From the sequence record MK327934.1: DNA of 64,000 bases; one strand, written 5' to 3'. Under the pieces are notes generated by a model, which was not told where the DNA came from, did not search any database, and saw only the letters and a list, made by a program, of their open reading frames with translations. This document shows positions 1-33,154 of this stretch, in pieces (the first letter of the stretch is position 1; every line of letters starts with the position of its first letter). This DNA comes from Escherichia phage vB_EcoM_G2469. Made by a program: the position numbers and the translations under genes.

Positions 1-2214
1 TTATTTGGCCGCTTCCACGGCCTTCATGAATTTAACGATTTGAGCGACCTGTTCTTTGGAAAGAGTACCACGTCGTCCCATGTAGTCTGACACAATATGA
101 TAATTGGTTTCGAATTCAATAACCATTTTATCATCATTATCGTAAGCATTATCTTTAAGCTTATCGAAAATTTTAGCACACAATTCTAACTTCTTATTCA
201 GGTCTGTATTAGTAGCACCTGCGAATCGATTCCATCCCCAACGATTATTTACTGTTGAGAGTTTTGCAAAGTCTTTACTGATTTCTTTGTTCTTAGAGCT
301 AAAATACTTACTAAGGAAGTTAAGCTCTTCATTACGAGTAATATGATTCAAATAAGGCTGTGCTCTACGACTTGGTGATACATACTCATCATAATCCACT
401 TTATCGATTAGCGTAATATAGTCATTAATTGATTTTTCGAACAAGCATTCTACTTCACCAAGTTTACGAACTTTCTTAGCAATCTGTGGACGGACTACAG
501 TGAACTCTTTAATACCTGACAAATCGGCAATACGGGTCAAGAAATTGGAGTCATAGTTCAACCAACCTTTATCTGCGTCAAGACATTCAGCATTAGAACG
601 ATTACGAACTATAGCATAACCTTGGATTTCATCTGCTTCACTTGCCGGAATAAAGAGGTCTTCTGATACCCAAACGTCATTTTCATTCTTAAAGAATCGA
701 TGAGCACTTGGCAATTTAGGACGAGGCTCATTAGTCCGTTTCCTGACTTCAATCCATGGCTTAACGATTTGTAAAAGCTCTGAAGTCTTGTACATGTTAA
801 TGTTGTCGCCATCAAAGATAACTTTAAGGCGTTCCAGAAGTTTCATTGCATCTTCGTCCGTAGGGTCAACGAATAGTACACTTTTACCAAAACCGCGTGG
901 AACTTTACCAGTTAATTTAACCTCGTCTTTAGACATTTCAATTGAATTAAGAGCTCGCATTAATGGAACGCGTCCCTTAACGTCGTCAATAACAATTTCA
1001 ACATTTTTAATGTTAATGCCAATCAGACTGTTAATTGAAATGGTTGCCGTTGAGCTACCGCTTTCACGAATACGACGAAGACGAGTGGATTCAACGATAT
1101 CGTATACGACACCAAGATTACACCACTCAGGCCCCATTTTAAAACGTTTGTACAACTCAGAATAAGTTAGTTGTTCTTTAGAGTATTTCAGTGATTCAAT
1201 ATTAGAACCGGCTTTTTCCATATATTTACGAGCAGAGTAACCAAGAGAATCGATTTCACGGAATACATGACGTGGATATTCACAATCAATCCATTTCTTA
1301 GAATCTTCAGCAAATAATTTTGCATCGATTTCTGCAACACGTTTATGGATATTTGCTACTGTACGTTTATCAAATGACAATGCTTCACGAGACGGGGCTA
1401 CATCTAGTTCACCCATAGGGAATTTAATATAAGCTGTAGTGCATCGCGTCATCATCCAGGTTTGTTCTTTAATAACACTTCCGATTGGATATACAATACC
1501 ACCATAAACAGCCATGATATTACCACGTTCACCCCATGGAGCTTCCTTGGCTAAATAAACATCATCGAATTCAGGAAAGTATTTGATATCTTTAACACCG
1601 CGAACTTCTGCAATATCACCTAGAGGACGCATAACATATGCAATTTCAGATGCGAACTTTTCAAAATCTTCTGGGTTAACCGGTACAACTACTTCTACAC
1701 CCGTACGGTCATCAGGACCCATCTTATCTACGAAGGTTGGCTTAATCTGTGGACCACTGTCATCTTGATAAATTACATAACCACGAACTTCACCGTTGTG
1801 ATAAGACGTAAGGTTAAACGTATCGGTATATGCTAGTGGAGCTTTAGAGCCGAGTCCGAATCCACCAATGAAATCGTTACTCGATGTTTTAGTTGAAGCA
1901 AAATATGAGTTATAGATTCCTGGCTCTTCATCATTACCTCGAATGGTGAAATCACTCATACCAGGACCAAAGTCTCGAACTACAAAACGTGGGTCTAAAC
2001 GACCTGGAGCCTGAACAATAAACTTATCAGTGCAACCATTAAGAATTTGTCCATCGATACAGTTTGTGATTAATTCACGTACACAAGCCAATTCTTTGTT
2101 TGTATAAAGGTCATTAGACAAAATCTTATAAACTTTGCTATTGCCTTGAATAGTGAATGCTGTGCTCTTACCGCCTGAACCAATAATCGTTTCTTTAGCC
2201 GTTTCAATAATCAT
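1..2214 (-). CDS. rIIA: rIIA protein (GHKL-ATPase-like, membrane-associated)
   Basis: 737-aa ORF, ATG at 2212-2214, stop at window edge; size and position match T4 rIIA (725 aa) ahead of gene 39. Confidence 0.85.
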   Translation of the reverse strand: MIIETAKETIIGSGGKSTAFTIQGNSKVYKILSNDLYTNKELACVRELITNCIDGQILNGCTDKFIVQAPGRLDPRFVVRDFGPGMSDFTIRGNDEEPGIYNSYFASTKTSSNDFIGGFGLGSKAPLAYTDTFNLTSYHNGEVRGYVIYQDDSGPQIKPTFVDKMGPDDRTGVEVVVPVNPEDFEKFASEIAYVMRPLGDIAEVRGVKDIKYFPEFDDVYLAKEAPWGERGNIMAVYGGIVYPIGSVIKEQTWMMTRCTTAYIKFPMGELDVAPSREALSFDKRTVANIHKRVAEIDAKLFAEDSKKWIDCEYPRHVFREIDSLGYSARKYMEKAGSNIESLKYSKEQLTYSELYKRFKMGPEWCNLGVVYDIVESTRLRRIRESGSSTATISINSLIGINIKNVEIVIDDVKGRVPLMRALNSIEMSKDEVKLTGKVPRGFGKSVLFVDPTDEDAMKLLERLKVIFDGDNINMYKTSELLQIVKPWIEVRKRTNEPRPKLPSAHRFFKNENDVWVSEDLFIPASEADEIQGYAIVRNRSNAECLDADKGWLNYDSNFLTRIADLSGIKEFTVVRPQIAKKVRKLGEVECLFEKSINDYITLIDKVDYDEYVSPSRRAQPYLNHITRNEELNFLSKYFSSKNKEISKDFAKLSTVNNRWGWNRFAGATNTDLNKKLELCAKIFDKLKDNAYDNDDKMVIEFETNYHIVSDYMGRRGTLSKEQVAQIVKFMKAVEAAK

Positions 2215-2427: not shown

Positions 2428-2452
2428 AATATTCTCTTCAGTAGATTCCTAG

Positions 2453-2503
2453 GGCACTATTACTAAAGACCATATAATCTATCATCTTATGTGTAATAGT
2501 GCC
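2453..2503. promoter_or_regulatory. inverted repeat, 11-bp arms ggcactattac/gtaatagtgcc around a 29-nt spacer containing TATAAT
   Basis: read directly in the intergenic region between the glycosyltransferase stop and rIIA.1 start. Confidence 0.4.
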
Positions 2504-2519
2504 TCAGGCTATTCAGGAT

Positions 2520-3620
2520 TTACGCTGTGAAGATTTTATCCCACATCGCAACAACTGCATCTCGGTTATACTTCTTCCATACTGCTTCAGCACGTTTAAC
2601 TCGAGCTTCGTATGTGTCAGTGAATTCTAATACAGCTTTTGTGTAAAGCGCAACTACTTCTTTCTTAGGAGTAGAGGAATCAATTTCTACACGCACAGTA
2701 TCTGGGTCGTATTCGAATGTCGCATGAGGATAATCCTTAAAAACTAACTGAATTACAGGGACACCTTTAGAGATGGCTTCAATAGAACTATTCTCTACCG
2801 TACCTGTGTCAGGACACGTATTAATAAGTGCTTTAGCTATTTTAAGGCGTTCCATGATTTCACTGTGTGGAGCATCAATAATAACAGGATATTTAGCTGG
2901 TGGCGCCCATTTGCTTGGACAGTATCCTGCACCATTTTCGCCTAGTGCTTTAATCGCTTCAAGAGCAACATCAGTACGACGCATTTTAGTGTCATAACGT
3001 TGTGCACTAATAATCAGATCCGTCGCCGGAAGAACTTCAGGTTTATCATTCAAACAAATAACCGGATAATCTTCGGCTTCAAACAACGGATTTGCTCGCC
3101 AATAATCATAATCAATTTTGTCAGTCAGACCTGAAGTCATATAACAATATTTGCGTTCAAATTCACGGAAGGCTTTAGTAGGAGCATAACTCTTACCACC
3201 GTTCTTATGAATTTGAATAGTCTGGTCCCAAATTTGAACAATGCCACGAGATACCGGTTCAAATGGTGTTGCCATAAAATTCTTATGAACTTTAGAGAGA
3301 CCTGCGTCTTTAATTGCCTGAACGGTTAGTTTAGTCGGTTCCATAGTAACAACAAAATCGTATTCATGGATGCCGGCTAGTTCAACAATCTTACGAGCCA
3401 TAGTATAACTCATACCTAGACTGAATTTTGTCAGATGACCAACAGGATGATGATTAACTTTCCAGTCACCAAATGTGTCATTATCAAAACCGATATAATC
3501 AATATCAGCACCGATGGACACAAGATATTTCAACACATTTAAATGTACTGCTTCAAGACCACCTTGTACACGGTCAGGATTAAATGGGACTGCACGAGAT
3601 GGGATAAACATAACTTTCAT
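2520..3620 (-). CDS. glycosyltransferase, GT-B/GT4-like (candidate DNA hmC sugar transferase)
   Basis: 366 aa; N-terminus MKVMFIPSRAVPFNPDRVQGGLE is typical of GT-B retaining glycosyltransferases; sits where T4 has gene 60/mobA. Confidence 0.7.
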   Translation of the reverse strand: MKVMFIPSRAVPFNPDRVQGGLEAVHLNVLKYLVSIGADIDYIGFDNDTFGDWKVNHHPVGHLTKFSLGMSYTMARKIVELAGIHEYDFVVTMEPTKLTVQAIKDAGLSKVHKNFMATPFEPVSRGIVQIWDQTIQIHKNGGKSYAPTKAFREFERKYCYMTSGLTDKIDYDYWRANPLFEAEDYPVICLNDKPEVLPATDLIISAQRYDTKMRRTDVALEAIKALGENGAGYCPSKWAPPAKYPVIIDAPHSEIMERLKIAKALINTCPDTGTVENSSIEAISKGVPVIQLVFKDYPHATFEYDPDTVRVEIDSSTPKKEVVALYTKAVLEFTDTYEARVKRAEAVWKKYNRDAVVAMWDKIFTA

Positions 3621-3631
3621 AATTAAGCCTT

Positions 3632-3665
3632 ATTAAAATTAAAATGAAGCTCCCGAAGGAGCTTA
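3632..3665 (-). terminator. intrinsic terminator-like hairpin (stem aagctcc, loop UUCG on RNA) followed by U-rich tract
   Basis: hairpin 3648-3665 overlaps gene 39 stop; A-run on plus strand gives U-run on minus transcript. Confidence 0.5.
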
Positions 3666-5480
3666 GGACATCCATTCTTTACGAAGTTCTGAATCATCAC
3701 CCATCAACATTTCAAAGAGTTCTTTCCAATTTTCAGGAAGTTTAACTACGTCGTACACAGGGTTCTGAATCATTTCACGATATTCTGACTTTTCAAGGGA
3801 GCCTAATCCCTTGATGTATCTAATACTATGCTTAGGCAGTGTATCTTCAACTTCTTCATACTCAGCTACAGTATAAAACCATTTTTGAGTTTTGCCAATT
3901 TGTGCAATAATTACAGGTGTTTTAACAAAGCGAATACGTCCTTGTTCAAACAATTCAGGCCAATTACTAAAGAAAGCAAGCAAAGCCGGATAGATACTTC
4001 CAAGACCGTCATGATCGGCATCGGTCATAATTGCAATATTACGATAGTTCGTATTCTCTGCCTTTTCACCAAGAATAAGACCTGTGATAGCACAGATATC
4101 AAAGAGCTCTTTGTTCTTCATCATATCAGCATATGACATACCCCAGCTATTCATCACCTTACCACGTAATGGGAATCCGCCGTGTAGTTCACGGTCACGA
4201 ACATCAATGAGATAACCAATTGCCGAATCACCTTCTGTTAAAAACAATGTCGTATCTGCATCTTTACCACATTGGTTAGCTTTAATATGCTTATGAACCT
4301 TAGCTTTAGTTGCCTTTTTAGCTGCTTTAGTTTCTGCAGCCTTTTCTGCCGCCAATTTACGAGCTAATGCTGCTTCAACAATAGGCATAATCAAGGCTTC
4401 GTTTTTAAGAAGTGCCTGAGCAATTTTCTTAGCATCTAATTGGATATGATTACGAATATCACCATACGTTGACGTTAAACGTTCTTTAGTCTGAGAATCA
4501 AAACGCATGTTGCTCATGTCTCTAATAAACATCAACATTGTGAGGCATTCTTTAACACGAGCTTTAGTGACTTCAATACCCTTATATTTCTTTTTAATAC
4601 CTGGCAAAAGATGTTCGCAGATATCATCCATTACACATTCAACATGATGACCACCATTTTTAGTATGGATGTTATTCACATAAGTTAAATGACGGAAGCC
4701 ATCTGGTGATGTTGTGAATGCTATAGAGACTTTATCATTTTCTTGAATGATGTTATCTTCACCAAATTGTTTAGCAAATCGTTTAAAATTACCATCAACC
4801 TTTTTACCATTAAATGTGAACTTGATATCAGGATAAACGACTGCCAATGTTTGAAGTCGGTCTAAAGTAATATCTAAATAAATTTGAGATAAATTATGCT
4901 CTTCAAATGAAGAGAAATCAGGAGTGAAGATTACTTTAGTGCCTTTACCTTTAGATTTCTTAGAAGACCATGATTTGTTTTCCATTCCGTTTGAACAGTT
5001 AACAGTGATTTCGTTTTCGCCATCTGACGTGATGCCTGTAAACAACGTAGAGAAGATATTAGTTAAACTACTCCCGACGCCGTTCATACCACCAGTCTTG
5101 CGTTCAGAGTCATCACCAAAGTTACCACCGGCCTTTGGAATAGTCCAGGCTGCTACAGGCCCAGGAATTTGTTCACCTGTTTGGTCGGTAACTAAACCTT
5201 GAGGAATACCACGTCCGTTATCTTCCACCGAAACTTGATTATTTTTAATTTGCACATCAATTTTATTTGCAAACTTAAATGATGTACGAATAGCTTCATC
5301 AACCGAGTTGTCAATAATCTCATCGATTAATTTAACCAGACCAGGAACATATTCAACTTGTTGATATTTACCAAACAAAAAACGCTCATGGGCTTCTTTA
5401 GCAGAAGAACCAATATACATACCACTACGTTTCTTAATATGTTCTACATCTGACAATACCTTAATTTCATTTTTAATCAT
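3663..5480 (-). CDS. 39: DNA topoisomerase II large subunit, GyrB-like ATPase (fused 39+60 form)
   Basis: 605 aa; GHKL motif IIDNSVDEAIRT; uninterrupted ORF with no separate gene 60. Confidence 0.9.
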   Translation of the reverse strand: MIKNEIKVLSDVEHIKKRSGMYIGSSAKEAHERFLFGKYQQVEYVPGLVKLIDEIIDNSVDEAIRTSFKFANKIDVQIKNNQVSVEDNGRGIPQGLVTDQTGEQIPGPVAAWTIPKAGGNFGDDSERKTGGMNGVGSSLTNIFSTLFTGITSDGENEITVNCSNGMENKSWSSKKSKGKGTKVIFTPDFSSFEEHNLSQIYLDITLDRLQTLAVVYPDIKFTFNGKKVDGNFKRFAKQFGEDNIIQENDKVSIAFTTSPDGFRHLTYVNNIHTKNGGHHVECVMDDICEHLLPGIKKKYKGIEVTKARVKECLTMLMFIRDMSNMRFDSQTKERLTSTYGDIRNHIQLDAKKIAQALLKNEALIMPIVEAALARKLAAEKAAETKAAKKATKAKVHKHIKANQCGKDADTTLFLTEGDSAIGYLIDVRDRELHGGFPLRGKVMNSWGMSYADMMKNKELFDICAITGLILGEKAENTNYRNIAIMTDADHDGLGSIYPALLAFFSNWPELFEQGRIRFVKTPVIIAQIGKTQKWFYTVAEYEEVEDTLPKHSIRYIKGLGSLEKSEYREMIQNPVYDVVKLPENWKELFEMLMGDDSELRKEWMS

Positions 5481-5520
5481 GTTGTCTCCTCGTTATGAAG
5501 GTATTCTATCATTCGAAATC

Positions 5521-5545
5521 TAAAGCAAAAAGGGCCGAAGCCCTT
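5521..5545 (-). terminator. intrinsic terminator-like hairpin (gggc-UUCG-gccc) plus U-run
   Basis: aagggccgaagccctt preceded by A-run on plus strand, immediately after the stop of ORF 5544-5969. Confidence 0.5.
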
Positions 5546-22239: not shown

Positions 22240-22248
22240 GATAACTCC

Positions 22249-22590
22249 TTAAAAGAATTTAAATTTTTTCTTGGTTCGTTCATTAAAAGCTTGTTGTACT
22301 TGCATTGTAACACATTTTTCAACATGTGGTGCAAGTTCTGCTTTTCTGTCCTGGTCAAGAACTGCAAAGTCCATTACGATTTTACCATCAACCCAGTCTA
22401 GTTTTGTAATATAGACTATATGATGGGAACCGTCTTCAAGTGTAATCAGAATCTCTTGAATGACATTTTCCATTGCTGAACGGATAATTTTAAGAGATTC
22501 ATTAAACACTCGTTCTTTGCGAATGTCTTCCCCTTCCGAAGAAGGGGATTCATCAACGATTTCTAGATTTAAATCATCGAGATTATTCAT
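22249..22590 (-). CDS. 40: gp40-like protein
   Basis: track ORF starts at TTG; ATG at 22588-22590; sits between uvsX and 41. Confidence 0.55.
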   Translation of the reverse strand: MNNLDDLNLEIVDESPSSEGEDIRKERVFNESLKIIRSAMENVIQEILITLEDGSHHIVYITKLDWVDGKIVMDFAVLDQDRKAELAPHVEKCVTMQVQQAFNERTKKKFKFF

Positions 22591-23755
22591 CGAAATCTTC
22601 CATTTCGTCAAGGTCGTTTTCTATATCTGCTGCAGACGGAGCATCAGAAGTTTTAACCGGAACTTTAGTTGTTGCTTTGCAATTAATAAGGTCGTTAACA
22701 GCGTCATCAACTTCTTTAATAGAAGAGATAGCACCTAGTTTATATTTAGTTTCAATTGCATCTCGGAAAGGTTTGTGTTTAAACAAAGGTCCCCAGAATT
22801 CTACACAATCAGTAGCTTTAGCACGCCATGATTTTTCTTCACGAATCATTTCACCTGTTTCTTCGTCAAGGAATTCGCGAGCATACCAACCGGCTTTAGG
22901 CTTAACTACAAAACCAATTTCAGTTGCCATTTCTAACAAGCCACTGAATGGGTCAATACCGCCATCAAAATTAACCGTGATCGGGAAAGTAGATTTCTCT
23001 TTAACTGTACGAGATTTTTCCGCTTTCAACGTGAAGTCATAACCGGTCAATTCTGTACCTTCTTTAACCTGACGTTTAGAGATAAAAAATACCGTGTTGG
23101 CAGAATAAAGAATACCTGTACCACCGCCCATAATCTCTTTAGGATACAATCCGCCGATTTCCATTGCTGTATGGTTAATTGCAACACACGGAATATCTTT
23201 AATAGTCAGATAAGGAGTCACAATGCGGAACAGAGATTTAAGTGCCTTAGCACGAGACATATCACCTACAACTTTCTCGTTCAACGCATCTTCGGTTTCT
23301 TTCTTAGATGCAGTATTACCGATTGAATCGATAAAGATAATAACTTTATCACCGCGTTCAATAGCGTCAAGCTGATTAGTCATATCAACTTTAAGTTGTT
23401 CGACAGATTGAATCGGAGTATGAACTACACGGTCTAAATCAACACCCATTGAACGAAAATAAGATTCTGAAGCACCGAATTCTGAGTCATAAAACAAACA
23501 GATTGCATCTTTATATTTCTTCATATACGCTGCAACCATAGTTAGTCCAAACAACGTTTTAAAGTGTTTAGAAGGAGCAGCAAAAATAGTTAAGCCTGAT
23601 TGCAACCCTGCATTCAGTGCACCACCTAATGCGATATTCAACATCGGAATACGAGTAGGGACTTCATCACGATTATTAAACAGCTTAGACTTAGTCAAGT
23701 CTGCAGTCATTTTAGAAGTAGAAGCTTTAATCAGACGAGATTTTAAATCAGACAT
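22583..23755 (-). CDS. uvsX: UvsX recombinase (RecA-like)
   Basis: 390 aa; RecA-fold, T4 UvsX-like throughout. Confidence 0.95.
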   Translation of the reverse strand: MSDLKSRLIKASTSKMTADLTKSKLFNNRDEVPTRIPMLNIALGGALNAGLQSGLTIFAAPSKHFKTLFGLTMVAAYMKKYKDAICLFYDSEFGASESYFRSMGVDLDRVVHTPIQSVEQLKVDMTNQLDAIERGDKVIIFIDSIGNTASKKETEDALNEKVVGDMSRAKALKSLFRIVTPYLTIKDIPCVAINHTAMEIGGLYPKEIMGGGTGILYSANTVFFISKRQVKEGTELTGYDFTLKAEKSRTVKEKSTFPITVNFDGGIDPFSGLLEMATEIGFVVKPKAGWYAREFLDEETGEMIREEKSWRAKATDCVEFWGPLFKHKPFRDAIETKYKLGAISSIKEVDDAVNDLINCKATTKVPVKTSDAPSAADIENDLDEMEDFDE

Positions 23756-23804
23756 TGTATTTTTCCATAGGCATCATTATATTTTACTCATGTTTAAAAG
23801 ATAA

Positions 23805-23836
23805 GATGATTATATACTAAGGGTTATACAGCATTT
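23805..23836 (-). promoter_or_regulatory. candidate middle promoter (MotA-box-like TGCTGTA, 12-bp spacer, TATAAT)
   Basis: minus strand aaaTGCTGTAtaacccttagtaTATAAT upstream of uvsX. Confidence 0.4.
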
Positions 23837-23853
23837 AAAACTTTAAATGGCTC

Positions 23854-24402
23854 TTAACGAGCCCATTTGATGATTTCTGTAATCAAACCATTACGTTCGC
23901 TTGCATTAAATCCTATAACTTTGTTAGCACCATCATGATTAAGTAATTGATATGTTTGGATTTTGTTATGAATTGCAAACTCTTCAAAATGTGAAATGAC
24001 TGTATTAAAACCGAATGAAGACAAAGTAATAAGGTCGTCTTCAAAACTTTCAGTCATTTCGTTACGTGTTAAAATAATTGTGAACACATCATGGTTTTGG
24101 CAAAGACGAACATAATCCTGTTCATAAACGTCAAGAACCGAGTCAGCATCTTGTCGAATACGTCCATAAACCCAGTTACTAATATATCCACGGTCTAACA
24201 GATAAATCTTAGTAGGGTCTAAATAATTCAACATCGTTTCGAAACAGCCAACTTCATTTCGAGACTTAACATCGAAACGCCCATCAACTGTTCGTTTAGG
24301 GAAATCAATCTTTACATATCTTTCACTAATTTCCATTATGTCATTAATGAAAGTTGTTTTACCAGCATTATCTGGGCCATCTACTAAAATAATTTTAGCC
24401 AT
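23854..24402 (-). CDS. P-loop nucleoside/nucleotide kinase-like protein
   Basis: 182 aa; Walker A ILVDGPDNAGKTT near N-terminus. Confidence 0.6.
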   Translation of the reverse strand: MAKIILVDGPDNAGKTTFINDIMEISERYVKIDFPKRTVDGRFDVKSRNEVGCFETMLNYLDPTKIYLLDRGYISNWVYGRIRQDADSVLDVYEQDYVRLCQNHDVFTIILTRNEMTESFEDDLITLSSFGFNTVISHFEEFAIHNKIQTYQLLNHDGANKVIGFNASERNGLITEIIKWAR

Positions 24403-24403
24403 T

Positions 24404-25303
24404 TTATTCCTCGATTACGACATCTTCATATTTAGGTATATTATACGGCGAAGAAATTAAAGCATTAAAGTAGATGAACTCACCAAGACCTGGATGGAAT
24501 ACTTCTTCAGGATTTTCGAAATATTGAATTTTCGGACGCCCTTTAAGAATTTGATAGTACTCTGTTTTAGTTGGTTTAAAAATTCGAATCAGCGCTTCTT
24601 CAGGATACTTATTTCTGTCGAAGCTATTATTTGGATCGGTTATATAAAGCGGTTGGCCTAATTGAATTGCACATTCAACCACTTGTTCAAAACGATAGCA
24701 CGGGTCACTAATTCGAAATGGATGAAAAATACCATCTAGATAAATAGGAGCCAAATCACCTACAAGACGCTGCATGATGGAAGGACGTATAACTTTCTGC
24801 GTTACGATAATCTTATTACCATCTGCACCAGCGTTAACCAGCACTTCTTTTTGACGTTCATTCAACACAGTAGTTTGAAGTGAACGATTAACCGACAACA
24901 TATCAGTTTTTAAGAATTCATCAATATAAAAACGTGGTTTATTAGGGTCTGCAGTGATATTGAAATTGAATTCCACATCAAAAGCGCCGTCATATCCAGT
25001 GATATCTGTGATTAGAAAATCACAGTCATAATAAGCAATTAATGAATCAACCACAAATTCATTTTCAGACCAGAAATATTTACGAGTGTTATACGCGTTA
25101 TCTTTATACCATAATGGAACAAACTTAAATTCTGGAAAAAGACGTTCGCATTCTTTAATATCAGATGCATTACGTGGATATGTAATCACATCACCCGGAT
25201 TAGCACGGTGCAAATGAAGTTGGAAGTTGCCATCCTTAAGGATAGCATACTGTCCAGTTTCATAAGACCGCATACTCAAAATAGGTACGCGGAAAATAGC
25301 CAT
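24404..25303 (-). CDS. hypothetical protein at the beta-gt position (possible second sugar transferase)
   Basis: 299 aa, no resemblance to T4 beta-gt seen; TAATG overlap with gene 42. Confidence 0.5.
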   Translation of the reverse strand: MAIFRVPILSMRSYETGQYAILKDGNFQLHLHRANPGDVITYPRNASDIKECERLFPEFKFVPLWYKDNAYNTRKYFWSENEFVVDSLIAYYDCDFLITDITGYDGAFDVEFNFNITADPNKPRFYIDEFLKTDMLSVNRSLQTTVLNERQKEVLVNAGADGNKIIVTQKVIRPSIMQRLVGDLAPIYLDGIFHPFRISDPCYRFEQVVECAIQLGQPLYITDPNNSFDRNKYPEEALIRIFKPTKTEYYQILKGRPKIQYFENPEEVFHPGLGEFIYFNALISSPYNIPKYEDVVIEE

Positions 25304-26019
25304 TAGTCAAGGAATCCTTTAACATAATCAAAATCACGTTCAAACACATGGGCACTTACCATGGTATGAGTATAATCACCAACTTCTACACCGCATTCGT
25401 TAGCGATATAATGAAGTAATTTTCCTTGGAGATAAAAATCCAACTGCATAACAACAGCACAGTTCTGAGAACGCATATGACAGTGGGTATAAAGCTTACC
25501 ATCACGAATATAATAAGTCACTGAGTCAGTACATGGATATTCAAGCGTTTCGTCTGAATCAAGCAAAGCCTGATCAGAACTTTCTAGAATTTGGAACACA
25601 ACTCTTCGGGAGTTAGGCTTCTCTTTAAGTTCTTTTAGAAGAGCTGGTAATTGGGCCGCAATGCGAGGACCATAGAAAGTGTTGAAGTTCGCCGGCAAAA
25701 CATCTGATTTTGGTTTAGAAATAAATTTAGCGACATTAGGATATGCCTTAAACGCTTCTTCTGCGTTGGTACCACCAGAAATCATAAACTTCCAGAAGTC
25801 TTCGGCATATTCATAAGAGATGCGGTTAATACGTGGGTCGGTCATTTTGAATGATGATGGAGTGTCAACAACTACTGTCATAGACCCAATTTCATTACAA
25901 CGTCCAATACGAGAATCAGTTACGAATTCCGGGTTTTCTAAAATTTCACGATTGACTGTTTTAAATGCGGTTTGAAAATCTGCGGCTTTGATATATTTCA
26001 TTGTGTTATGTTTTCCCAT
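25303..26019 (-). CDS. 42: dCMP hydroxymethylase (thymidylate-synthase fold)
   Basis: 238 aa; T4 gp42-like. Confidence 0.9.
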   Translation of the reverse strand: MGKHNTMKYIKAADFQTAFKTVNREILENPEFVTDSRIGRCNEIGSMTVVVDTPSSFKMTDPRINRISYEYAEDFWKFMISGGTNAEEAFKAYPNVAKFISKPKSDVLPANFNTFYGPRIAAQLPALLKELKEKPNSRRVVFQILESSDQALLDSDETLEYPCTDSVTYYIRDGKLYTHCHMRSQNCAVVMQLDFYLQGKLLHYIANECGVEVGDYTHTMVSAHVFERDFDYVKGFLD

Positions 26020-26061
26020 GTTTACCTCAATACAATTTATTATATACTCAATTCGTAAAGC

Positions 26062-26301
26062 TTATTTGAATTTCTTGACAATGTTGATATAACGTAAAGC
26101 TTCAGCATCGATACTTCCAAGAACACTATGAAGAAATGCATCAGCGTAGTATTCCAATTGAACAGGTTCTTTAATCACTTTAGCCGCTTTAGTTTCAAAC
26201 AGGCCCATCAGGGCCTTTTTAAGAATTTGTTCATTAGTGTTCAGTTTAATAGTCAAAATCTCTTCATTAAGTTGGTGGTTAAAAGTTTTTCTAGAAATCA
26301 T
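26062..26301 (-). CDS. small hypothetical protein
   Basis: 79-aa ORF, ATG start, 4-nt overlap with next gene. Confidence 0.45.
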   Translation of the reverse strand: MISRKTFNHQLNEEILTIKLNTNEQILKKALMGLFETKAAKVIKEPVQLEYYADAFLHSVLGSIDAEALRYINIVKKFK

Positions 26302-27467
26302 TCCGGGTACCTCAAAGCGTCATCAGAGTTAGTTATATCAATAATAGATATAGAGTTTTCTGCTAACCCGTTTTTAGATAATTGACGTTTATAATATCTT
26401 TCACAATATGTACACGTCGTCCCGCAGATTTCATTAGCACAATCGAAATCCGGATGTCTGAACCACCTTTTTTCTAAAAAGCCATCTAACAAAGAGGTTT
26501 CAATATTTACTGTATGTGAAAACTCGGTCTCATTTTCAAGAGTGAAAATAGTCTCTAAAGGCTTCCACAGTTCTAACAAATTACCTTCAAACTTTTCAGA
26601 AGCGTATGCTTCAAGAACTTTCAAAATGTAGTCTGTGCTACCTGTACGTCCTGAAACTTTGAATTGAGTGATACCAATATCATTATAAAGTTTCAAATCT
26701 TGAGGACGAACAAAACGAGTTCTCAGCCAGTTAAATGGGTCTGTATCACGAGCTTTAATGCAGTGTTGCATTGGATATCCATTTAAGGATTTAGCATCAT
26801 CAGCGGTAACATCAGTACTATGGAAAATATAGCAAGAGTCACGATAGCTACAATGTGTTGTATACCCTTTACCAGCATTAGAACAGAACTCATTTACAAG
26901 AACTTCAAATATTATATTGTTCTTATTGCAAAACTCTGCTGCACGCTTCAGGAAAGAAACTGAACGGTTCTTATGAATTCCGCAGCAGACCTTTTTGATA
27001 TTATACTGGTCATGCAAGTATTTGATTTGAGTTACAGCATCGACATGTAGAATTGTTGAAACTTCAATCTCAATGTCTTTATTGACTTCACGAACAATTT
27101 CCATAACAACAGGGTTAGCGATAGTAATACGCCATACGCCTATTGACCAAAGATACTGAACATAATCCTGAATAGCTTTCTTCTTCCACTCAACTAGTTC
27201 TCTTTTTGAACCAGGATTTATCGTGTTGAGTGTATAGTTAAAGCAAATACCTAATTCGTTACAACGTTTAACGTAGTCTTCTAACATCTTTTTGTCAACG
27301 TCAGGAAGCCTAAAATCAGGTCTGGCTGCTACAAAAGCCATTTCTCTTGTAGAGCCATATACTTCGTTTATCAAGCTATTAGGATAGGTTTTATTGAGCT
27401 CTACGATTTTATCAAGAAGAGCTAAATCAAAATTCGTTCCGATTTTAAAAGTATTCATTTTTTGCAT
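26298..27467 (-). CDS. hypothetical enzyme with C-terminal Cys cluster
   Basis: 389 aa; C-terminal C-x4-C-x3-C-x2-C (CANEICGTTCTYC) contains CxxxCxxC; second CSxxxxxxxxHCSxxxxC stretch. Confidence 0.55.
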   Translation of the reverse strand: MQKMNTFKIGTNFDLALLDKIVELNKTYPNSLINEVYGSTREMAFVAARPDFRLPDVDKKMLEDYVKRCNELGICFNYTLNTINPGSKRELVEWKKKAIQDYVQYLWSIGVWRITIANPVVMEIVREVNKDIEIEVSTILHVDAVTQIKYLHDQYNIKKVCCGIHKNRSVSFLKRAAEFCNKNNIIFEVLVNEFCSNAGKGYTTHCSYRDSCYIFHSTDVTADDAKSLNGYPMQHCIKARDTDPFNWLRTRFVRPQDLKLYNDIGITQFKVSGRTGSTDYILKVLEAYASEKFEGNLLELWKPLETIFTLENETEFSHTVNIETSLLDGFLEKRWFRHPDFDCANEICGTTCTYCERYYKRQLSKNGLAENSISIIDITNSDDALRYPE

Positions 27468-27513
27468 CTCGCGTTAATTGATGCGATGGTTTTTGCAGGT
27501 CTTACTTAAATTA

Positions 27514-27915
27514 TTATAGATTCGGTTTATACGATTTAAATGTTTCGAATTCGCCTTTATTCATAAGAGCTTTGAATTCGTCAGGACGCATAGCTTTGTC
27601 GTCGATAATCCAATCATATACTGGTTTATGTGTTAGCAAATTATGGTACTTCAAGCCAATGTTTGCCAAGTTCTGAATCAGACTTGGGAGAATGTCAATT
27701 GCTATACGACCAGGACCTACTGACTTCATACCGCGAGCAGTGTAAAGCGTTATGGTATGCCCTGCATCATACAGGGCATTAATGGCAGACACCATTTCGA
27801 CGTCTGGTTTGAAGTTCACGTAATCACGATTGTTATTCCACTCTGTTATACAATCATCGACATCAAAACAAAGATTAAGCATGTTTTCTACACGGTGCAT
27901 TAGATTCGTTCCCAT
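27514..27915 (-). CDS. HAD-superfamily phosphatase (GmhB/KdsC-like)
   Basis: 133 aa; motif I FDVDDCIT near N-terminus; alternative start at 27900 in TAATG overlap. Confidence 0.6.
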   Translation of the reverse strand: MGTNLMHRVENMLNLCFDVDDCITEWNNNRDYVNFKPDVEMVSAINALYDAGHTITLYTARGMKSVGPGRIAIDILPSLIQNLANIGLKYHNLLTHKPVYDWIIDDKAMRPDEFKALMNKGEFETFKSYKPNL

Positions 27916-29585
27916 TGATGAGTGATATCGCCACCGATTGGACGATAGGAAACACCAGTTTCTTTATCAGTTAGTACCCATTTACCAGGATTTTTTGTAA
28001 TCAGAGTAGCCGTTACAGGTTCTGCTACGTCATAACTAATAGAGCCGTCCTGAAGTACACGGCCCATGTTACGTAATTGCTTAGTCAGAAGTTCCATACC
28101 TTTATAATATGCGGCTACCGCTTTAAGTGGATTATTCTTGAAATAACCACCTAATGCAATCCAGATAATTGCCACAGCCAAATGATGATATTCATTAAAC
28201 GAACTCAGCTTTCCATATTTGTAAACTAATGGATTGATGTTAATAGTCACATTACAAGTTGTTTCATCAATAGTAAACTGTCCCCAGGTCGGATTAGCAT
28301 TGAATTCATCATAACCTGAAACAGCATAAAGCACTTTAGCTTCATCATACAATTTTGGCCCGTAAATCTTGGTTTCACCAAAATATCCACGAGGGTCGAT
28401 AAATTTGACTTCGCCGTTATCAGTAATCATAGTATTACTGAAGTTCGGGTCACCATGAATAACAGAGTACTGTCCCTGAGAACGGTTATGATAACGAATA
28501 AGGTGTTCTAAAGCTTGTTTCAGCATTGGCTTCAGACGTCCAATCTTAGTGTAGTTCACATGTGTGATTTTACCAAATGAATCAATCAATGGTTGAATGC
28601 TTTCACAACGATCAATAACTTTCGTATAGAATTCTTTAGTGAAATCACGACGAACAGTTTCAGGACTTACAAAATAAGTGTCTGTGCTGAATTTCAGTGC
28701 ATCTAAAATTGCATCAACAATTTGTGGACGAGCAAGACTTGATTTGGATTTAATATATTCAAATGCCGGCTTACCTTTAATGCGTTCCATTTCAAAGTTA
28801 TTTTCATTAACAGAAACTAACTGAGGAACTGAATCTGATTTCACTTTAAGATACCATGAAATCTCATCTTTCTGAAGAGCTCGACCTTGTTCAGTTAATG
28901 CGAATTTAGTTACAGTTTCTTCACCAATTTCAACTGCATTAAAACTACGATTAAGTTCACGAACTTCATGAGCCTTTTCAAGTTTAGGCATATCACCAAG
29001 GTCGATGATATTCATAAGCTCTGATTTATTGAATGCGCCGCTGTAAAGGAATTCTACGAAATCACGTCCTTTGCAGTATTCATGAATTTCCTCATCGGTA
29101 GAACCCATGTAGAATTCCCAGTCTTTGAACTGGTAAATTCCCACAACATTACCACCTGTTGAACCTACGTTAGTGATATTTTCACCATCGAAATTATATC
29201 GACATTCGTCACCCTTAACATAGATTGCGTTAACATTCCAAGACCATGAACCAAAATCAGGAATAATATCACACCAGTTAACAATTACGTTATGGCCGTC
29301 TAAATCTTTGTGTAATTTAGCAAGAGCATAAGCAGAACCATACGCTTCATCGACTGTACGAATAGTCACATTGAACCCTTCTTGCTCACAATAAGCTCGA
29401 ACAGTTTCAGCAAATTTTGAATGAACTACTACAATAATTTCATCTGCGCCAAGGTCAGAATAAATTGTATACAAATTGCTCAGAATAGTGTCTTGTTTAT
29501 AGTTAACAAGCACCTTAGGAATATGGTGAGTAATTGGATATAAACGAGTTGCCAATCCAGCACCAAGAATAACAGCTTTTTTCAT
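27900..29585 (-). CDS. bifunctional sugar-phosphate nucleotidyltransferase / sugar kinase
   Basis: 561 aa; N-terminal MKKAVILGAGLATRL nucleotidyltransferase signature; C-terminal HGDPNFSN...IDPRG kinase motif. Confidence 0.75.
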   Translation of the reverse strand: MKKAVILGAGLATRLYPITHHIPKVLVNYKQDTILSNLYTIYSDLGADEIIVVVHSKFAETVRAYCEQEGFNVTIRTVDEAYGSAYALAKLHKDLDGHNVIVNWCDIIPDFGSWSWNVNAIYVKGDECRYNFDGENITNVGSTGGNVVGIYQFKDWEFYMGSTDEEIHEYCKGRDFVEFLYSGAFNKSELMNIIDLGDMPKLEKAHEVRELNRSFNAVEIGEETVTKFALTEQGRALQKDEISWYLKVKSDSVPQLVSVNENNFEMERIKGKPAFEYIKSKSSLARPQIVDAILDALKFSTDTYFVSPETVRRDFTKEFYTKVIDRCESIQPLIDSFGKITHVNYTKIGRLKPMLKQALEHLIRYHNRSQGQYSVIHGDPNFSNTMITDNGEVKFIDPRGYFGETKIYGPKLYDEAKVLYAVSGYDEFNANPTWGQFTIDETTCNVTININPLVYKYGKLSSFNEYHHLAVAIIWIALGGYFKNNPLKAVAAYYKGMELLTKQLRNMGRVLQDGSISYDVAEPVTATLITKNPGKWVLTDKETGVSYRPIGGDITHQWERI

Positions 29586-29626
29586 GTTGTGGTCCTCATT
29601 GGTAAGTAGGAGTATTGTACACTATT

Positions 29627-29770
29627 CTAGTTAAAGCATTCATACTTTGCTTGTAGTCCAATCATAATCCATCCAATTACAAGTGTTGGAATCATTACCG
29701 GAGCCGTTAAGCTCCAGTAGATAGTCATGACAAGCATCAATAGTAAAAGTCCTATTGTTATTGCTTTCAT
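29627..29770 (-). CDS. small membrane protein (47 aa), not in ORF track
   Basis: MKAITIGLLLLMLVMTIYW...; ATG overlaps upstream stop as ATGA. Confidence 0.35.
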   Translation of the reverse strand: MKAITIGLLLLMLVMTIYWSLTAPVMIPTLVIGWIMIGLQAKYECFN

Positions 29771-30402
29771 TGTTCGCCTCGTAACATGGCACCTAGTGCA
29801 CCGCCTGGATGGAACTTAAGGAAATCATTAGAGGTAAATCCACGTTCAGACGAAAGGTTGATAGCAAACGTATCGATAAGCGCTAACAACAATGTAGTGG
29901 ACATTGTCGGAGCTAAAGAGTTCTCGTCAACTTCTACCGCGATACCAGTACAGAACGTATAATCAAAAAGAGCTTCGTATTCTTGTGGAATGTCAGGGTT
30001 ACAATGTAACAGAATCTGTTTAACCTGAGGACGAATCATACGAAGATGTTTAGCAACACCTATCATTTCTTCAGTCTTACCAGAACGACTAATATGAATC
30101 AACACGTCATTAGGTGCAATAAATCCTGCGTCACCATGAGAATAATGCCCAGTGTTCAAATACATGCTAGGAATACCTAGTGAAGCAAATGTCTCGGAAG
30201 CTTTAGTTGCGATATTAGCATTCTTACCAACACCTGTAATAATTACCCGGCTTTCATAATTACTAAGTCCAGGGCGTCGAAGAGTTTCTAGAATAGCATT
30301 ATAACGAGCAGGGTTTTGACTAATTACTTTGGCCATAGCGGCCAAAGAAGAAGCTTGTTTTATGATTGCGTCAATAGCGATAGTAATAGGAGTAGTTTTC
30401 AT
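29767..30402 (-). CDS. SIS-domain sugar-phosphate isomerase (GmhA/KdsD-like)
   Basis: 211 aa; SIS motifs VGKNANIA and HISRSGKTEE. Confidence 0.75.
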   Translation of the reverse strand: MKTTPITIAIDAIIKQASSLAAMAKVISQNPARYNAILETLRRPGLSNYESRVIITGVGKNANIATKASETFASLGIPSMYLNTGHYSHGDAGFIAPNDVLIHISRSGKTEEMIGVAKHLRMIRPQVKQILLHCNPDIPQEYEALFDYTFCTGIAVEVDENSLAPTMSTTLLLALIDTFAINLSSERGFTSNDFLKFHPGGALGAMLRGEQ

Positions 30403-30442: not shown

Positions 30443-33154
30443 TCAAAAATCGAACATATCGAACAGAGATGCTTTCTTCTCATAATCGAGTTTCGCTGCT
30501 GATGTGAATCCTTCAAGTGGTTTAATAAATGTCTTCTCAAGGAGAACAGTGTAGTCCATCCAATGAAGTACATCGTCTTTAATTAAATCTGTGATTTCAG
30601 TACCAGAAGGCCATGCGATACATTTATCACCGAATGGGTTTCCTTCACGTAAAGGCAGAACATATACTTTTTCACCTTCTACAACTTGTGGTGCATCAAT
30701 ATTACCTTTGATAGCTCGGTTATATGTCAGAATTCCACGAATATGGAACGGGCATTTAGGACCAGGGAATCCACCGACATCATATTTAGCAATGTTATTC
30801 GCAGAAGATACCGACGCGATGCTAATATAATTCAATTGACGGAATTCTTTTTCAAACTCTTTAAAATATTCTTGTAATGATTCTTCACCTTCTTGAAGCA
30901 TACGACGAATACATTCTTTAAGAGCTTTCTGTACTGCTTTAGGGGTCGAAGATTTCTGAGTTTCTAGACCCATGATTTTGAGTTTAGGCTCAGCGTAACG
31001 AGTACCTTCCATATCCCACACGTTTAATGCATAACGTTTCTTACCAGTCCAAAATCCACCAATACCTTTAGAACCGAGCGGAGGGCCAGCAATAGCTTCT
31101 CGGTCCATGAACATCAAATGTTGCTTATTATTCATGTATTCGCACATTTCACGGAAACCTCTATCAATAGCAGGTTCCATACGTTCACGAGCGAACTTAT
31201 CTAAGAAGTCTACCCAATGGTTGGTATCACGGAATTTAGATTCACCAACCTTATCAATAATTTTATCTGCAGATACGTAAATGGAGTCTGTATCACCATA
31301 AAGAACGAAAGCTTCACCTTCTGTACCGCAAACTTCATTCAGATATTCATTAACTTTACGTTCAATCCACTGTAAAGCCATTTGCCCGAATGTTGTGATT
31401 GCAGTAGCATTACGCAAATCATAATAACGGAACCAAACGTTTCCAAGTGCACCATAAAGCGAGTTGATGAGCAATTTACGGTTAATCTGTGCAGTCATAC
31501 CTGCAACTTCAGTACGTTGAGCTCTAAACAACATTTCATTAAGAGATTTAGCAGACAACTTTTTAATCTTTTCTTTAATCTCATCACTGAAGTCGAAACG
31601 ATAATCAACATCTAATGGTTCGTCAACAGAAAGATTAGGATTATGCAATGCCTCTTTAATTATTTCACCATTACGTTGAGCTGCAAGCATATAACCTTTA
31701 TGTTCTTTACGTTGATTAAAGACCTTAGTGATTTCAGTTGGAACTACACCATCACGGTCTTTATAATACATCATGCCGTTAGGAGAGCAACTGTACACAT
31801 CTGAAGGACGTTCAGCGATTGCGTTAATATAATCATGCAATGGAGCTACTTTAAACGTTCCTGCTATTGTTTCCGGGCTAATATTCACTTGGCGAATAAT
31901 ACTTGGATACAGAGATGTAAGGTCGAAACTCATTACATATTTGTATCGATTTGGAATAGGTTCCTTAACAAAAGCGCCGGGATAAGGTTGAACCGGGTGA
32001 GAACGACCTTGTGGAATCACCTTGTTCTGCTCTTTAAGGCTATTAAAAATAATAGCATCCCATGTTTTAATTGGGCTAAACACAGATTGAATCTGTATCT
32101 TAGCATAATAACCCATGTCCAAGCTCAAGTTGATGAACTGACGCTTAGCATCAATTTGCAATACACGATACACGTCGATAATGTTATAAGAAATATATCG
32201 TTGGTGATTGCTTTCACGAAGCTTAGAAATAGGGCCGTCATATTTCAGTTTACCAACGTTCAATTCAAATTCTGAAATGTAATCCAGAGAATACGACGGT
32301 TGATTGGTAAAAGAGAATTTTTTGTAAAGGTCAATGTAATCAAGAACAGAGATACCGAACAATGTAATGATTTCACGAGAACCATACATGTTTTCGATAA
32401 CTTTAACACGAGTTTTACGATGCGGTGATAAACGTTTCGCAGTAGATTCGCCAAAAATATTCTTGATTCGGTTATACACATATGGAATATCAAATGACTC
32501 AACGTTCCATCCAGTCAAAATGACAGGAGTTTTCTGTTGCCAGAAGTTGAGATATTCCATCAACAATTCTTTTTCGTTATCGAACGGCATATAAATGATT
32601 TTATCGATAATTTCAGATGGAACTTCATCACCACCTTGTTCTTGAAGCTTAGCCGCAATTTCGATAGACCATTCTTCTACATTACCATATGGAGAATTCA
32701 ATAGATCAAATACGTAGAACCTGTCGTCAATTGAGTCATAATGGGTGATAGCATCAATCGGATGTTTTGCTTGTGACGGCTCAGGGAACCCGTCTGGAGA
32801 TGTTACTTCGATGTCGAAGTTAGCCACACGAATTTTTGTATGGTCGTATTTGATTTCATAGTTATAAGTGTCAGACAAATACGCCAATTTGAAATCGTCC
32901 ATGCCAAGTGCTTCAAGTCCGATATCTTCCATGCGTTTAATCCATTGGGAGGCATCACGCATATTAGCGAACAACTTACGAGTACACGGCTTACCGTAGA
33001 TATCGAAATATTTCGTAGCCTGACTTTCTGGACAATGAGCAAACAGTGATGGTTTATATTCTACTTCACGAGTACGTTCACGGCCATTAGAATCGATGTA
33101 ACGTTCAAAAATTGAATCACCAATCTGTTCAACCGTTAAGTAAAATTCTTTCAT
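30443..33154 (-). CDS. 43: DNA polymerase (family B) with 3'-5' exonuclease
   Basis: 903 aa; exo FDIE, pol motifs DxxSLYPS and YGDTDS; RB69-type N-terminus. Confidence 0.97.
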   Translation of the reverse strand: MKEFYLTVEQIGDSIFERYIDSNGRERTREVEYKPSLFAHCPESQATKYFDIYGKPCTRKLFANMRDASQWIKRMEDIGLEALGMDDFKLAYLSDTYNYEIKYDHTKIRVANFDIEVTSPDGFPEPSQAKHPIDAITHYDSIDDRFYVFDLLNSPYGNVEEWSIEIAAKLQEQGGDEVPSEIIDKIIYMPFDNEKELLMEYLNFWQQKTPVILTGWNVESFDIPYVYNRIKNIFGESTAKRLSPHRKTRVKVIENMYGSREIITLFGISVLDYIDLYKKFSFTNQPSYSLDYISEFELNVGKLKYDGPISKLRESNHQRYISYNIIDVYRVLQIDAKRQFINLSLDMGYYAKIQIQSVFSPIKTWDAIIFNSLKEQNKVIPQGRSHPVQPYPGAFVKEPIPNRYKYVMSFDLTSLYPSIIRQVNISPETIAGTFKVAPLHDYINAIAERPSDVYSCSPNGMMYYKDRDGVVPTEITKVFNQRKEHKGYMLAAQRNGEIIKEALHNPNLSVDEPLDVDYRFDFSDEIKEKIKKLSAKSLNEMLFRAQRTEVAGMTAQINRKLLINSLYGALGNVWFRYYDLRNATAITTFGQMALQWIERKVNEYLNEVCGTEGEAFVLYGDTDSIYVSADKIIDKVGESKFRDTNHWVDFLDKFARERMEPAIDRGFREMCEYMNNKQHLMFMDREAIAGPPLGSKGIGGFWTGKKRYALNVWDMEGTRYAEPKLKIMGLETQKSSTPKAVQKALKECIRRMLQEGEESLQEYFKEFEKEFRQLNYISIASVSSANNIAKYDVGGFPGPKCPFHIRGILTYNRAIKGNIDAPQVVEGEKVYVLPLREGNPFGDKCIAWPSGTEITDLIKDDVLHWMDYTVLLEKTFIKPLEGFTSAAKLDYEKKASLFDMFDF

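Follow-up and report, generated by a model that had tools for sequence, protein, structure and literature searches.

A GT-B glycosyltransferase encoded between rIIA.1 and gene 39 of Escherichia phage vB_EcoM_G2469 is a probable second-step arabinofuranosyltransferase of phage DNA

The 64,000-nucleotide (nt) stretch of Escherichia phage vB_EcoM_G2469 analyzed here (sequence record MK327934.1; referred to as the window) carries on its minus strand an open reading frame (ORF) of 366 amino acids (aa), which starts with ATG, has the N terminus MKVMFIPSRAVPFNPDRVQGGLE, and is flanked by an rIIA.1-like ORF, beyond which lies rIIA, and by gene 39 (Table 1). A preliminary description of this DNA had placed a glycosyltransferase ORF of this size between rIIA and gene 39, and both the ORF list and the conservation of the ORF bear this placement out. 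The ORF is a genuine gene, and we rejected the idea of a chance ORF. A 1.5-kb query around it matched 163 phage records at 90 to 99% DNA identity, all of them RB69-like (Mosigvirus), and the encoded protein is 95 to 99.5% identical across ∼155 Mosigvirus records. The RB69 gene, ORF003c (RB69p003, gp3, NP_861693.1), occupies the same coordinates, 2520..3620, in NC_004928, and its product is identical to the G2469 protein in 363 of 366 residues, the only substitutions being D192E, I261T, and T327I. Judging from this comparison, no functional distinction between the two is evident, and the G2469 protein is referred to here as the gp3 ortholog and its relatives as the gp3 family. PHROG 8302 covers the protein over its full length (E value, 4e-222).

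A profile search of PDB sequences with the gp3 ortholog gave one match (E value, 2e-195), namely, 9IQZ, “phage HY126 glycosyltransferase,” and 9IR0, the same protein with uridine diphosphate (UDP), both released on 2025-07-16 and 98% identical to the gp3 ortholog according to Foldseek. Through the crystal structures of this ortholog, the GT-B fold and the UDP site are experimentally established, with two Rossmann-like domains and the nucleotide-sugar in the cleft between them, as is typical of the GT-B superfamily. After this self match, the best Foldseek matches were the GT-B enzymes LmbT, BshA, PimA, a tetrahydrobiopterin glucosyltransferase, and WaaG, at ∼12% identity. A Pfam scan returned no family even at an E value of ≤10, so that neither PF00534 nor Glyco_transf_4 is matched, and an NCBIfam scan returned none at an E value of ≤1. 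Hidden Markov model scans of the family members gave no match either, except for a subthreshold GT4-conflict match of one member (P0010; E value, 0.0028). Exhaustive phmmer searching over 1.84 billion representatives yielded 16 matches at an E value of ≤1e-3, ∼10 of which are true relatives, while P0015, P0016, and P0018 to P0020 were discarded as repeat-protein artifacts. Scanning IMG/VR for a wider family retrieved 7 loci, every one of them from an already known isolate. Outside the phage family, there is a single distant relative (P0017); it scores above the cutoff of Pfam Glycos_transf_1 (PF00534) and aligns with residues 248 to 352 of the gp3 ortholog (pairwise E value, 3e-10), which links the C-terminal domain of the latter to GT4 by transitive homology.

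GT4 enzymes are characterized by a C-terminal E-x7-E motif and by a paired basic residue, R/K-x5-K/R, that contacts the diphosphate. The family alignment contains 47 invariant residues, including G20-G21, Q207-R208-x-D210, R214, and E276-x4-E281-A-I-x-x-G-x-P-V (E276-x4-E281-A-I-S-x-G-x-P-V in the gp3 ortholog); the basic pair R208-x5-R214 is therefore invariant, and the acidic pair E276/E281 is spaced by x4 instead of x7. Thomas et al. 2018 aligned G20, the arginine (their R207, R208 here), and E281 to the donor-site residues G15, R204, and E311 of T4 alpha-glucosyltransferase (alpha-gt) and found HHpred similarity to that enzyme at the superfamily level only (PMC6024577). In our hands, neither T4 alpha-gt (GT72) nor T4 beta-glucosyltransferase (beta-gt; GT63) gave a BLASTP match at an E value of ≤10, and the hhalign probabilities were 0.3% and 0.4%, respectively; given that hhalign is weak with a single-sequence template, these values exclude family membership, not superfamily kinship. 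The earlier statement that the protein is unlike alpha-gt and beta-gt thus holds at the sequence and profile levels. Its characterization as typical of GT4 holds only loosely, since no Pfam or NCBIfam model matches and the GT4 link comes from the fold matches and the bridge through P0017. We conclude that the gp3 ortholog is a UDP-sugar-binding GT-B enzyme of GT4-like type whose sequence has diverged strongly.

The DNA chemistry of RB69 is known from two studies. Thomas et al. 2018 reported arabinose in RB69 DNA and put forward ORF003c as the arabinosyltransferase (PMC6024577). Lee et al. 2026 showed that the sugar is ether-bonded to 5-hydroxycytosine (5hoC), not 5-hydroxymethylcytosine (hmC), and that RB69 DNA contains the nucleoside beta-D-Araf-(1-3)-alpha-D-Araf-5-hydroxy-dC (Araf, arabinofuranose; dC, deoxycytidine), accompanied by a mono form; the base-proximal linkage is alpha, and both extension linkages are beta (PMC13326640). 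RB69 gp48 made 5-hydroxy-dC in vivo and is a proven 5-hydroxy-deoxycytidine monophosphate (5-hydroxy-dCMP) synthase (PMC13326640). The window contains the whole corresponding cluster, with the genes for 5-hydroxy-dCMP synthase and UDP-arabinose, at 23854..30402 between uvsX and gene 43, ∼20 kb from the gp3 ortholog, just as the preliminary description had located its sugar-nucleotide genes. The ThyA homolog of this cluster is identical to RB69 gp48 at 235 of 238 positions, matches PDB entries 9IQC, 9IR2, and 9IQU, and reads RSQN where T4 gp42 has RSND, which is the D169N signature of 5-hydroxy-dCMP synthases. Because of this 99% identity and signature, the acceptor base in G2469 must be 5hoC, and the earlier naming of hmC as the acceptor was wrong. 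Also encoded in the cluster is a second glycosyltransferase of 299 aa (GT1), which is confidently modeled as GT-B and lacks sequence similarity to the gp3 ortholog by BLASTP and hhalign. The GT1 gene adjoins that of the ThyA homolog, as T4 beta-gt adjoins gene 42.

To assign the sugar-adding steps, we compared the phyletic distribution of GT1 with that of the gp3 family. GT1 was found in 348 phage records, comprising Mosigvirus, Dhakavirus, and phages of Klebsiella, Enterobacter, Serratia, Yersinia, Proteus, Edwardsiella, Shewanella, and Acinetobacter, and none of the arabinosylating lineages sampled lacks it. The gp3 family was found in 211 records, ∼155 from Mosigvirus with one copy and 55 from Acinetobacter phages with two places each, and collapses into 5 clusters at 90% identity, compared with at least 138 for GT1. 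About 135 records carry GT1 and the cluster without the gp3 family, and the genus counts of both searches are consistent with the gp3 family occurring in a subset of the cluster-bearing phages. No Shewanella, Dhakavirus, or Yersinia phage is among the gp3 family matches. One record with an organism name starting with “Tegunavirus” has a homolog of less than 60% identity; the genuine tegunaviruses (Yersinia phages TG1, phiR1-RT, and fHe-Yen9-01) have GT1, and none of them is among the family matches.

Two phages with GT1 were inspected at the locus level. Thanatos is reported to be mono-arabinosylated (mono-pentosylated), with a single arabinosyltransferase (PMC13326640); a local search of its locus found GT1 and no member of the gp3 family, in line with the lack of Shewanella records among the family matches. 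The 378-aa protein TH1_065, which occupies the position of the Acinetobacter homologs, was considered as a hidden family member and rejected as a U32-like protein. In the first 30 kb of JS98 (NC_010105.1), a member of Dhakavirus, the search likewise found GT1 and no gp3 family member, and at the place of the Mosigvirus gp3 gene, only ∼590 bp of unannotated DNA (2437-3024) separate rIIA.1 from gene 39. The Mosigvirus gene is therefore an insertion in this plastic interval. An initiating enzyme should occur in all phages that decorate 5hoC with one or more arabinose or pentose residues, and the gp3 family is missing from some of these. Wherever the chemistry is known, adding one to the number of family copies gives the reported arabinose count, with one in Thanatos, two in RB69, NP, Bas46, and Bas47, and three in DLP3. 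The alpha base-proximal and beta extension linkages also fit two enzyme families with two stereochemical outcomes.

The closest homologs with biochemical data come from Acinetobacter phages. The arabinosylation operons of Maestro, DLP2, and DLP3 contain both homologs, placed immediately behind the kinase gene, and the gp3 ortholog aligns over its full length with DLP3 gp77 (42.6% identity; E value, 9e-108) and gp76 (40.8% identity; E value, 1e-98) (XEO41443.1, XEO41444.1). In vitro, RB69 DNA received a third Araf from UDP-Araf when DLP3 gp76 and gp77 were both present, but not with either of them singly, and no single DLP3 glycosyltransferase acted on bare 5hoC DNA (PMC13326640). Given that the family is absent from mono-pentosylated Thanatos and that its DLP3 members extend arabinosylated DNA, the gp3 ortholog is probably a gp3-type DNA arabinofuranosyltransferase that adds the second arabinose onto the first one and not the first sugar onto the base, a reading to which we assign a probability of roughly 70%. 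The same assignment was proposed by Lee et al. 2026, in whose scheme RB69 gp46:47 initiates and gp3, as “beta-arabinosyltransferase 2,” would transfer Araf from UDP-Araf to arabinosylated 5hoC DNA (PMC13326640). Gene, structure, and proposed role are already in the literature, and our finding adds nothing to this picture. Compared with the preliminary description, the functional tie of a GT-B glycosyltransferase to phage DNA sugar modification is supported. Its choice of this protein as the best candidate for sugar transfer onto the base is probably wrong, since it overlooked GT1, the gp3 family is missing from the ∼135 cluster-bearing records mentioned above, and the closest tested homologs do not act on bare 5hoC DNA.

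The pathway would thus proceed as follows. The cluster would provide both 5-hydroxy-dCMP, to be built into DNA in place of cytosine, and UDP-D-arabinofuranose. The first arabinose would be joined to the 5-hydroxyl in an alpha linkage, most likely by GT1, and the gp3 ortholog would, presumably on its own, add a second arabinofuranose in a beta-(1-3) linkage onto this first sugar on polymerized DNA. The product would be the di-arabinosyl-5-hydroxycytosine typical of RB69-like phages, which may be a thicker shield against restriction and other DNA-targeting defenses.

Several points weigh against this assignment. The role of RB69 gp3 is labeled a proposal by Lee et al. 2026, who also left undecided whether the first sugar is placed on the nucleotide or on DNA (PMC13326640), and in the accessible literature we found no direct assay of the Mosigvirus proteins, RB69 gp3 included, and no knockout of their genes. 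Our attempt to show by a tree that the gp3 ortholog is orthologous to gp77 (step 2) over gp76 (step 3) failed. The DLP3-type paralogs are 56 to 58% identical to each other and represent duplicates specific to the Acinetobacter phage lineage, which makes the gp3 ortholog a co-ortholog of both, so orthology cannot tell which step it performs. Moreover, DLP3 required both paralogs jointly, whereas Mosigvirus has just one. The first-step enzyme is itself biochemically unproven. DLP3 gp79 (GT1) by itself was inactive on 5hoC DNA (PMC13326640), and the Thanatos GT1 ortholog formed UDP-xylose from uridine triphosphate and xylose-1-phosphate in vitro and left plasmid DNA unmodified. Finally, our AlphaFold2 model of the gp3 ortholog, built from a 6-sequence alignment, has a mean confidence score (pLDDT) of 60, with residues 114 to 188 below 40; for statements on the fold, the PDB entries were preferred over this model. 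The doubt over the first-step enzyme leaves the assignment of the gp3 ortholog unchanged, because phages without the gp3 family still attach one pentose.

The inactivity of both GT1 proteins on DNA would find an explanation if the gp3 ortholog were itself the initiating transferase, as in the preliminary description once its base is corrected, placing the first arabinose directly on 5hoC, with GT1 serving in extension or sugar activation. ORF003c was the first protein to be proposed as “the” arabinosyltransferase (PMC6024577), and it is the gp3-type enzyme that was crystallized with UDP. However, we consider this unlikely, given that Thanatos attaches one pentose to cytosine without the whole gp3 family, that so many records hold the cluster without it, that GT1 is itself a confidently modeled GT-B protein with a beta-gt-like gene position, and that the DLP3 homologs act on DNA that is already arabinosylated. 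The joint action of gp76 and gp77, either of which is inactive singly, raises another alternative, in which the gp3 ortholog is not autonomous and serves both arabinosylation steps, either complexed with GT1 or in the form of an obligate oligomer. The recent duplication of the Acinetobacter paralogs from one ancestor would fit a homo-oligomer that turned into a hetero-oligomer. Nevertheless, such an arrangement seems improbable, as in Mosigvirus 20 kb separate the gene from GT1, which belongs to another transcription unit, and mono-arabinosylation happens without the gp3 family. Lastly, the protein might glycosylate a non-DNA acceptor, such as a host envelope glycan, lipid, or protein in the manner of PimA, WaaG, or BshA; in favor of this are the top nonself fold matches, to lipid, lipopolysaccharide (LPS), and small-molecule GT4 enzymes, and the sole distant relative, P0017, which is a generic Glycos_transf_1 protein. 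This alternative was rejected as very improbable on gene context and DLP3 biochemistry. The fold matches share no more than the GT-B scaffold at ∼12% identity (T4 alpha-gt is also GT-B), and the family occurs only in phages with the 5hoC arabinosylation cluster, lies inside that operon in Acinetobacter phages, and has DLP3 members that modify DNA in vitro.

The assignment of the gp3 ortholog to the second step leads to a stereochemical puzzle. GT4-type GT-B enzymes are generally known as retaining. The first arabinose is alpha linked and the second and third are beta linked, yet the gp3 and GT1 families are both GT4-like and presumably share UDP-Araf as the donor. As a consequence of this mismatch, either the gp3 ortholog, despite its retaining-type donor-site signature, or GT1 must have a stereochemical outcome opposite to that of its fold relatives. 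It is possible, although we regard it as doubtful, that the gp3 ortholog represents a mechanistically new DNA-glycan-extending GT-B enzyme with such an anomaly, in which case the single copy might act as a homo-oligomer in the way that gp76 and gp77 act together.

Among known systems, RB69 gp3 and the HY126 glycosyltransferase are essentially the same protein as the gp3 ortholog (99% and 98% identity, respectively; 366 aa; same rIIA.1-39 locus). DLP3 gp77 and gp76 share the invariant G-G, Q-R-x-D-x3-R, and E-x4-E-A motifs but are two tandem paralogs within the cluster of a phage with tri-arabinose, while the single Mosigvirus copy lies 20 kb away from the cluster, in phages with di-arabinose. 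T4 alpha-gt (GT72) and beta-gt (GT63) are likewise phage GT-B enzymes that use a UDP-sugar and act on a modified cytosine in polymerized DNA; they differ in transferring glucose instead of Araf, in acting on hmC instead of the 5hoC ether, and in that the likely acceptor of the gp3 ortholog is a sugar hydroxyl rather than a base substituent. The bacterial, retaining GT4 enzymes PimA (2GEJ), BshA (3MBO), and WaaG (8B5S) have the same two-Rossmann GT-B architecture, the N-terminal Gly-Gly loop, and the C-terminal E..EA..G.P region, but are only 12 to 14% identical, contain the canonical E-x7-E instead of E-x4-E, and act on lipid, LPS, or small-molecule acceptors, in contrast to the DNA-borne sugar proposed here. 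The beta-1,6-glucosyl-alpha-glucose transferase of T2 and T6, which forms gentiobiosyl-hmC, is a functional analogue, as it is likewise a second phage enzyme, turning a monosaccharide on DNA into a disaccharide; it differs in sugar, base, and linkage.

Additionally, we inspected the expression context of the gp3 ortholog. The gap between the stop codon of gene 39 and the ATG of the gp3 ortholog measures 42 nt and contains a Shine-Dalgarno-like sequence, and a stable hairpin overlaps the gene 39 stop codon (Table 1). A pattern search for promoter-like motifs in this gap found none, while a motif resembling a MotA-box middle promoter precedes gene 39. This combination makes pre-replicative cotranscription of gene 39 and the gp3 ortholog plausible, and the MotA-box-like motif, as far as can be read from the DNA, likely drives it.

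Table 1. Features of the G2469 window at the gp3 locus and in the arabinosylation cluster
Feature	Coordinates	Strand	Basis or remark
rIIA	1..2214	minus	Neighbor of gp3 ortholog
rIIA.1-like ORF, 66 aa	2227..2427	minus	Neighbor of gp3 ortholog
gp3 ortholog, coding sequence of 366 aa; RB69 ORF003c/gp3 and HY126 glycosyltransferase ortholog; putative second-step DNA beta-arabinofuranosyltransferase	2520..3620	minus	363/366 identity, PDB, family alignment
Shine-Dalgarno-like AAGG, 7 nt upstream of gp3 ortholog ATG	3628..3631	minus	Read from sequence
Stable hairpin AAGCTCCTTCGGGAGCTT, UUCG loop, overlapping gene 39 stop codon	3647..3664	minus	
Gene 39, fused topoisomerase subunit, 605 aa	3663..5480	minus	Neighbor of gp3 ortholog
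MotA-box middle-promoter-like motif TTTGCTTTA-12-TAGAAT, upstream of gene 39	5503..5529	minus	Pattern search
GC-rich hairpin preceding MotA-box-like motif, upstream of gene 39	5545..5530	minus	
uvsX	22583..23755		Flanks cluster
Nucleotide-kinase-like, RB69 gp45 equivalent, first cluster gene after uvsX	23854..24402	minus	Homologs in Thanatos and JS98; no Pfam match; function per PMC13326640
GT1, GT-B, 299 aa, RB69 gp46:47 equivalent; proposed initiating transferase onto 5hoC	24404..25303	minus	
ThyA-family 5-hydroxy-dCMP synthase, RB69 gp48 equivalent	25303..26019	minus	PF00303, 235/238 identity, D169N
Peptidase-U32-like, RB69 gp50 equivalent	26298..27467	minus	PF01136; 79% identical to Thanatos TH1_065
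HAD-like phosphatase, RB69 gp51/HY126 AfhF equivalent	27514..27915	minus	Araf-1,5-P2 to Araf-1-P per PMC13326640
NTP-transferase and kinase fusion, RB69 gp52:53/HY126 AfhE equivalent; makes UDP-arabinofuranose	27900..29585	minus	PF00483 N terminal; weak kinase-family matches C terminal; function from literature
SIS-domain arabinose-5-phosphate isomerase, RB69 gp55 equivalent	29767..30402	minus	PF01380
Gene 43	30443..33154		Flanks cluster

Two further observations concern the cluster. In the RB69 record NC_004928 (24597-25497 and 28094-29780), gp46/gp47 and gp52/gp53 are split, while the window has single ORFs of 299 aa and 561 aa at these places, as expected if the RB69 splits are sequencing errors, which is the published interpretation. 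Among the JS98 cluster ORFs that we compared (22069-26804), we found no match to the U32-like protein or to the arabinose-5-phosphate isomerase, and the 166-aa orf43 of JS98 is unrelated to any cluster protein of the window.

In GenBank and RefSeq, orthologs and homologs of the gp3 ortholog are mostly called “hypothetical protein.” Several records name them “DNA alpha-glucosyltransferase” (RefSeq HX01 and many Acinetobacter phages), and one homolog record reads [quoted passage not shown] Given that the chemistry is that of arabinose, the glucosyltransferase and mannosyltransferase labels are misleading. Shigella phage JK45 (MK962757.1; locus 2598-4201), filed as Tequatrovirus yet carrying a gp3 that is 98.6% identical to the gp3 ortholog, repeats 494 bp from the 3′ part of the gene as an exact direct duplication, from which an additional 136-aa ORF (JK45_00003) corresponding to residues 237 to 366 results; this could be an assembly artifact or a recent duplication.

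The practical value of this analysis is a corrected annotation. How many sugars phage cytosines carry, and of what type, determines to which restriction, clustered regularly interspaced short palindromic repeat (CRISPR), glycosylase, and type IV systems a phage is open, and published comparisons have linked tri- versus di-arabinosylation to differing nuclease sensitivity. According to a secondary citation, deletion of the “arabinosyltransferase Aat” made the Mosigvirus Bas46 sensitive to a defense system. A role in extension, not initiation, would point phage engineers to a gene whose removal would give mono-arabinosylated, more tractable DNA, and it would make the gp3 ortholog a possible enzyme for building defined glycans on DNA.

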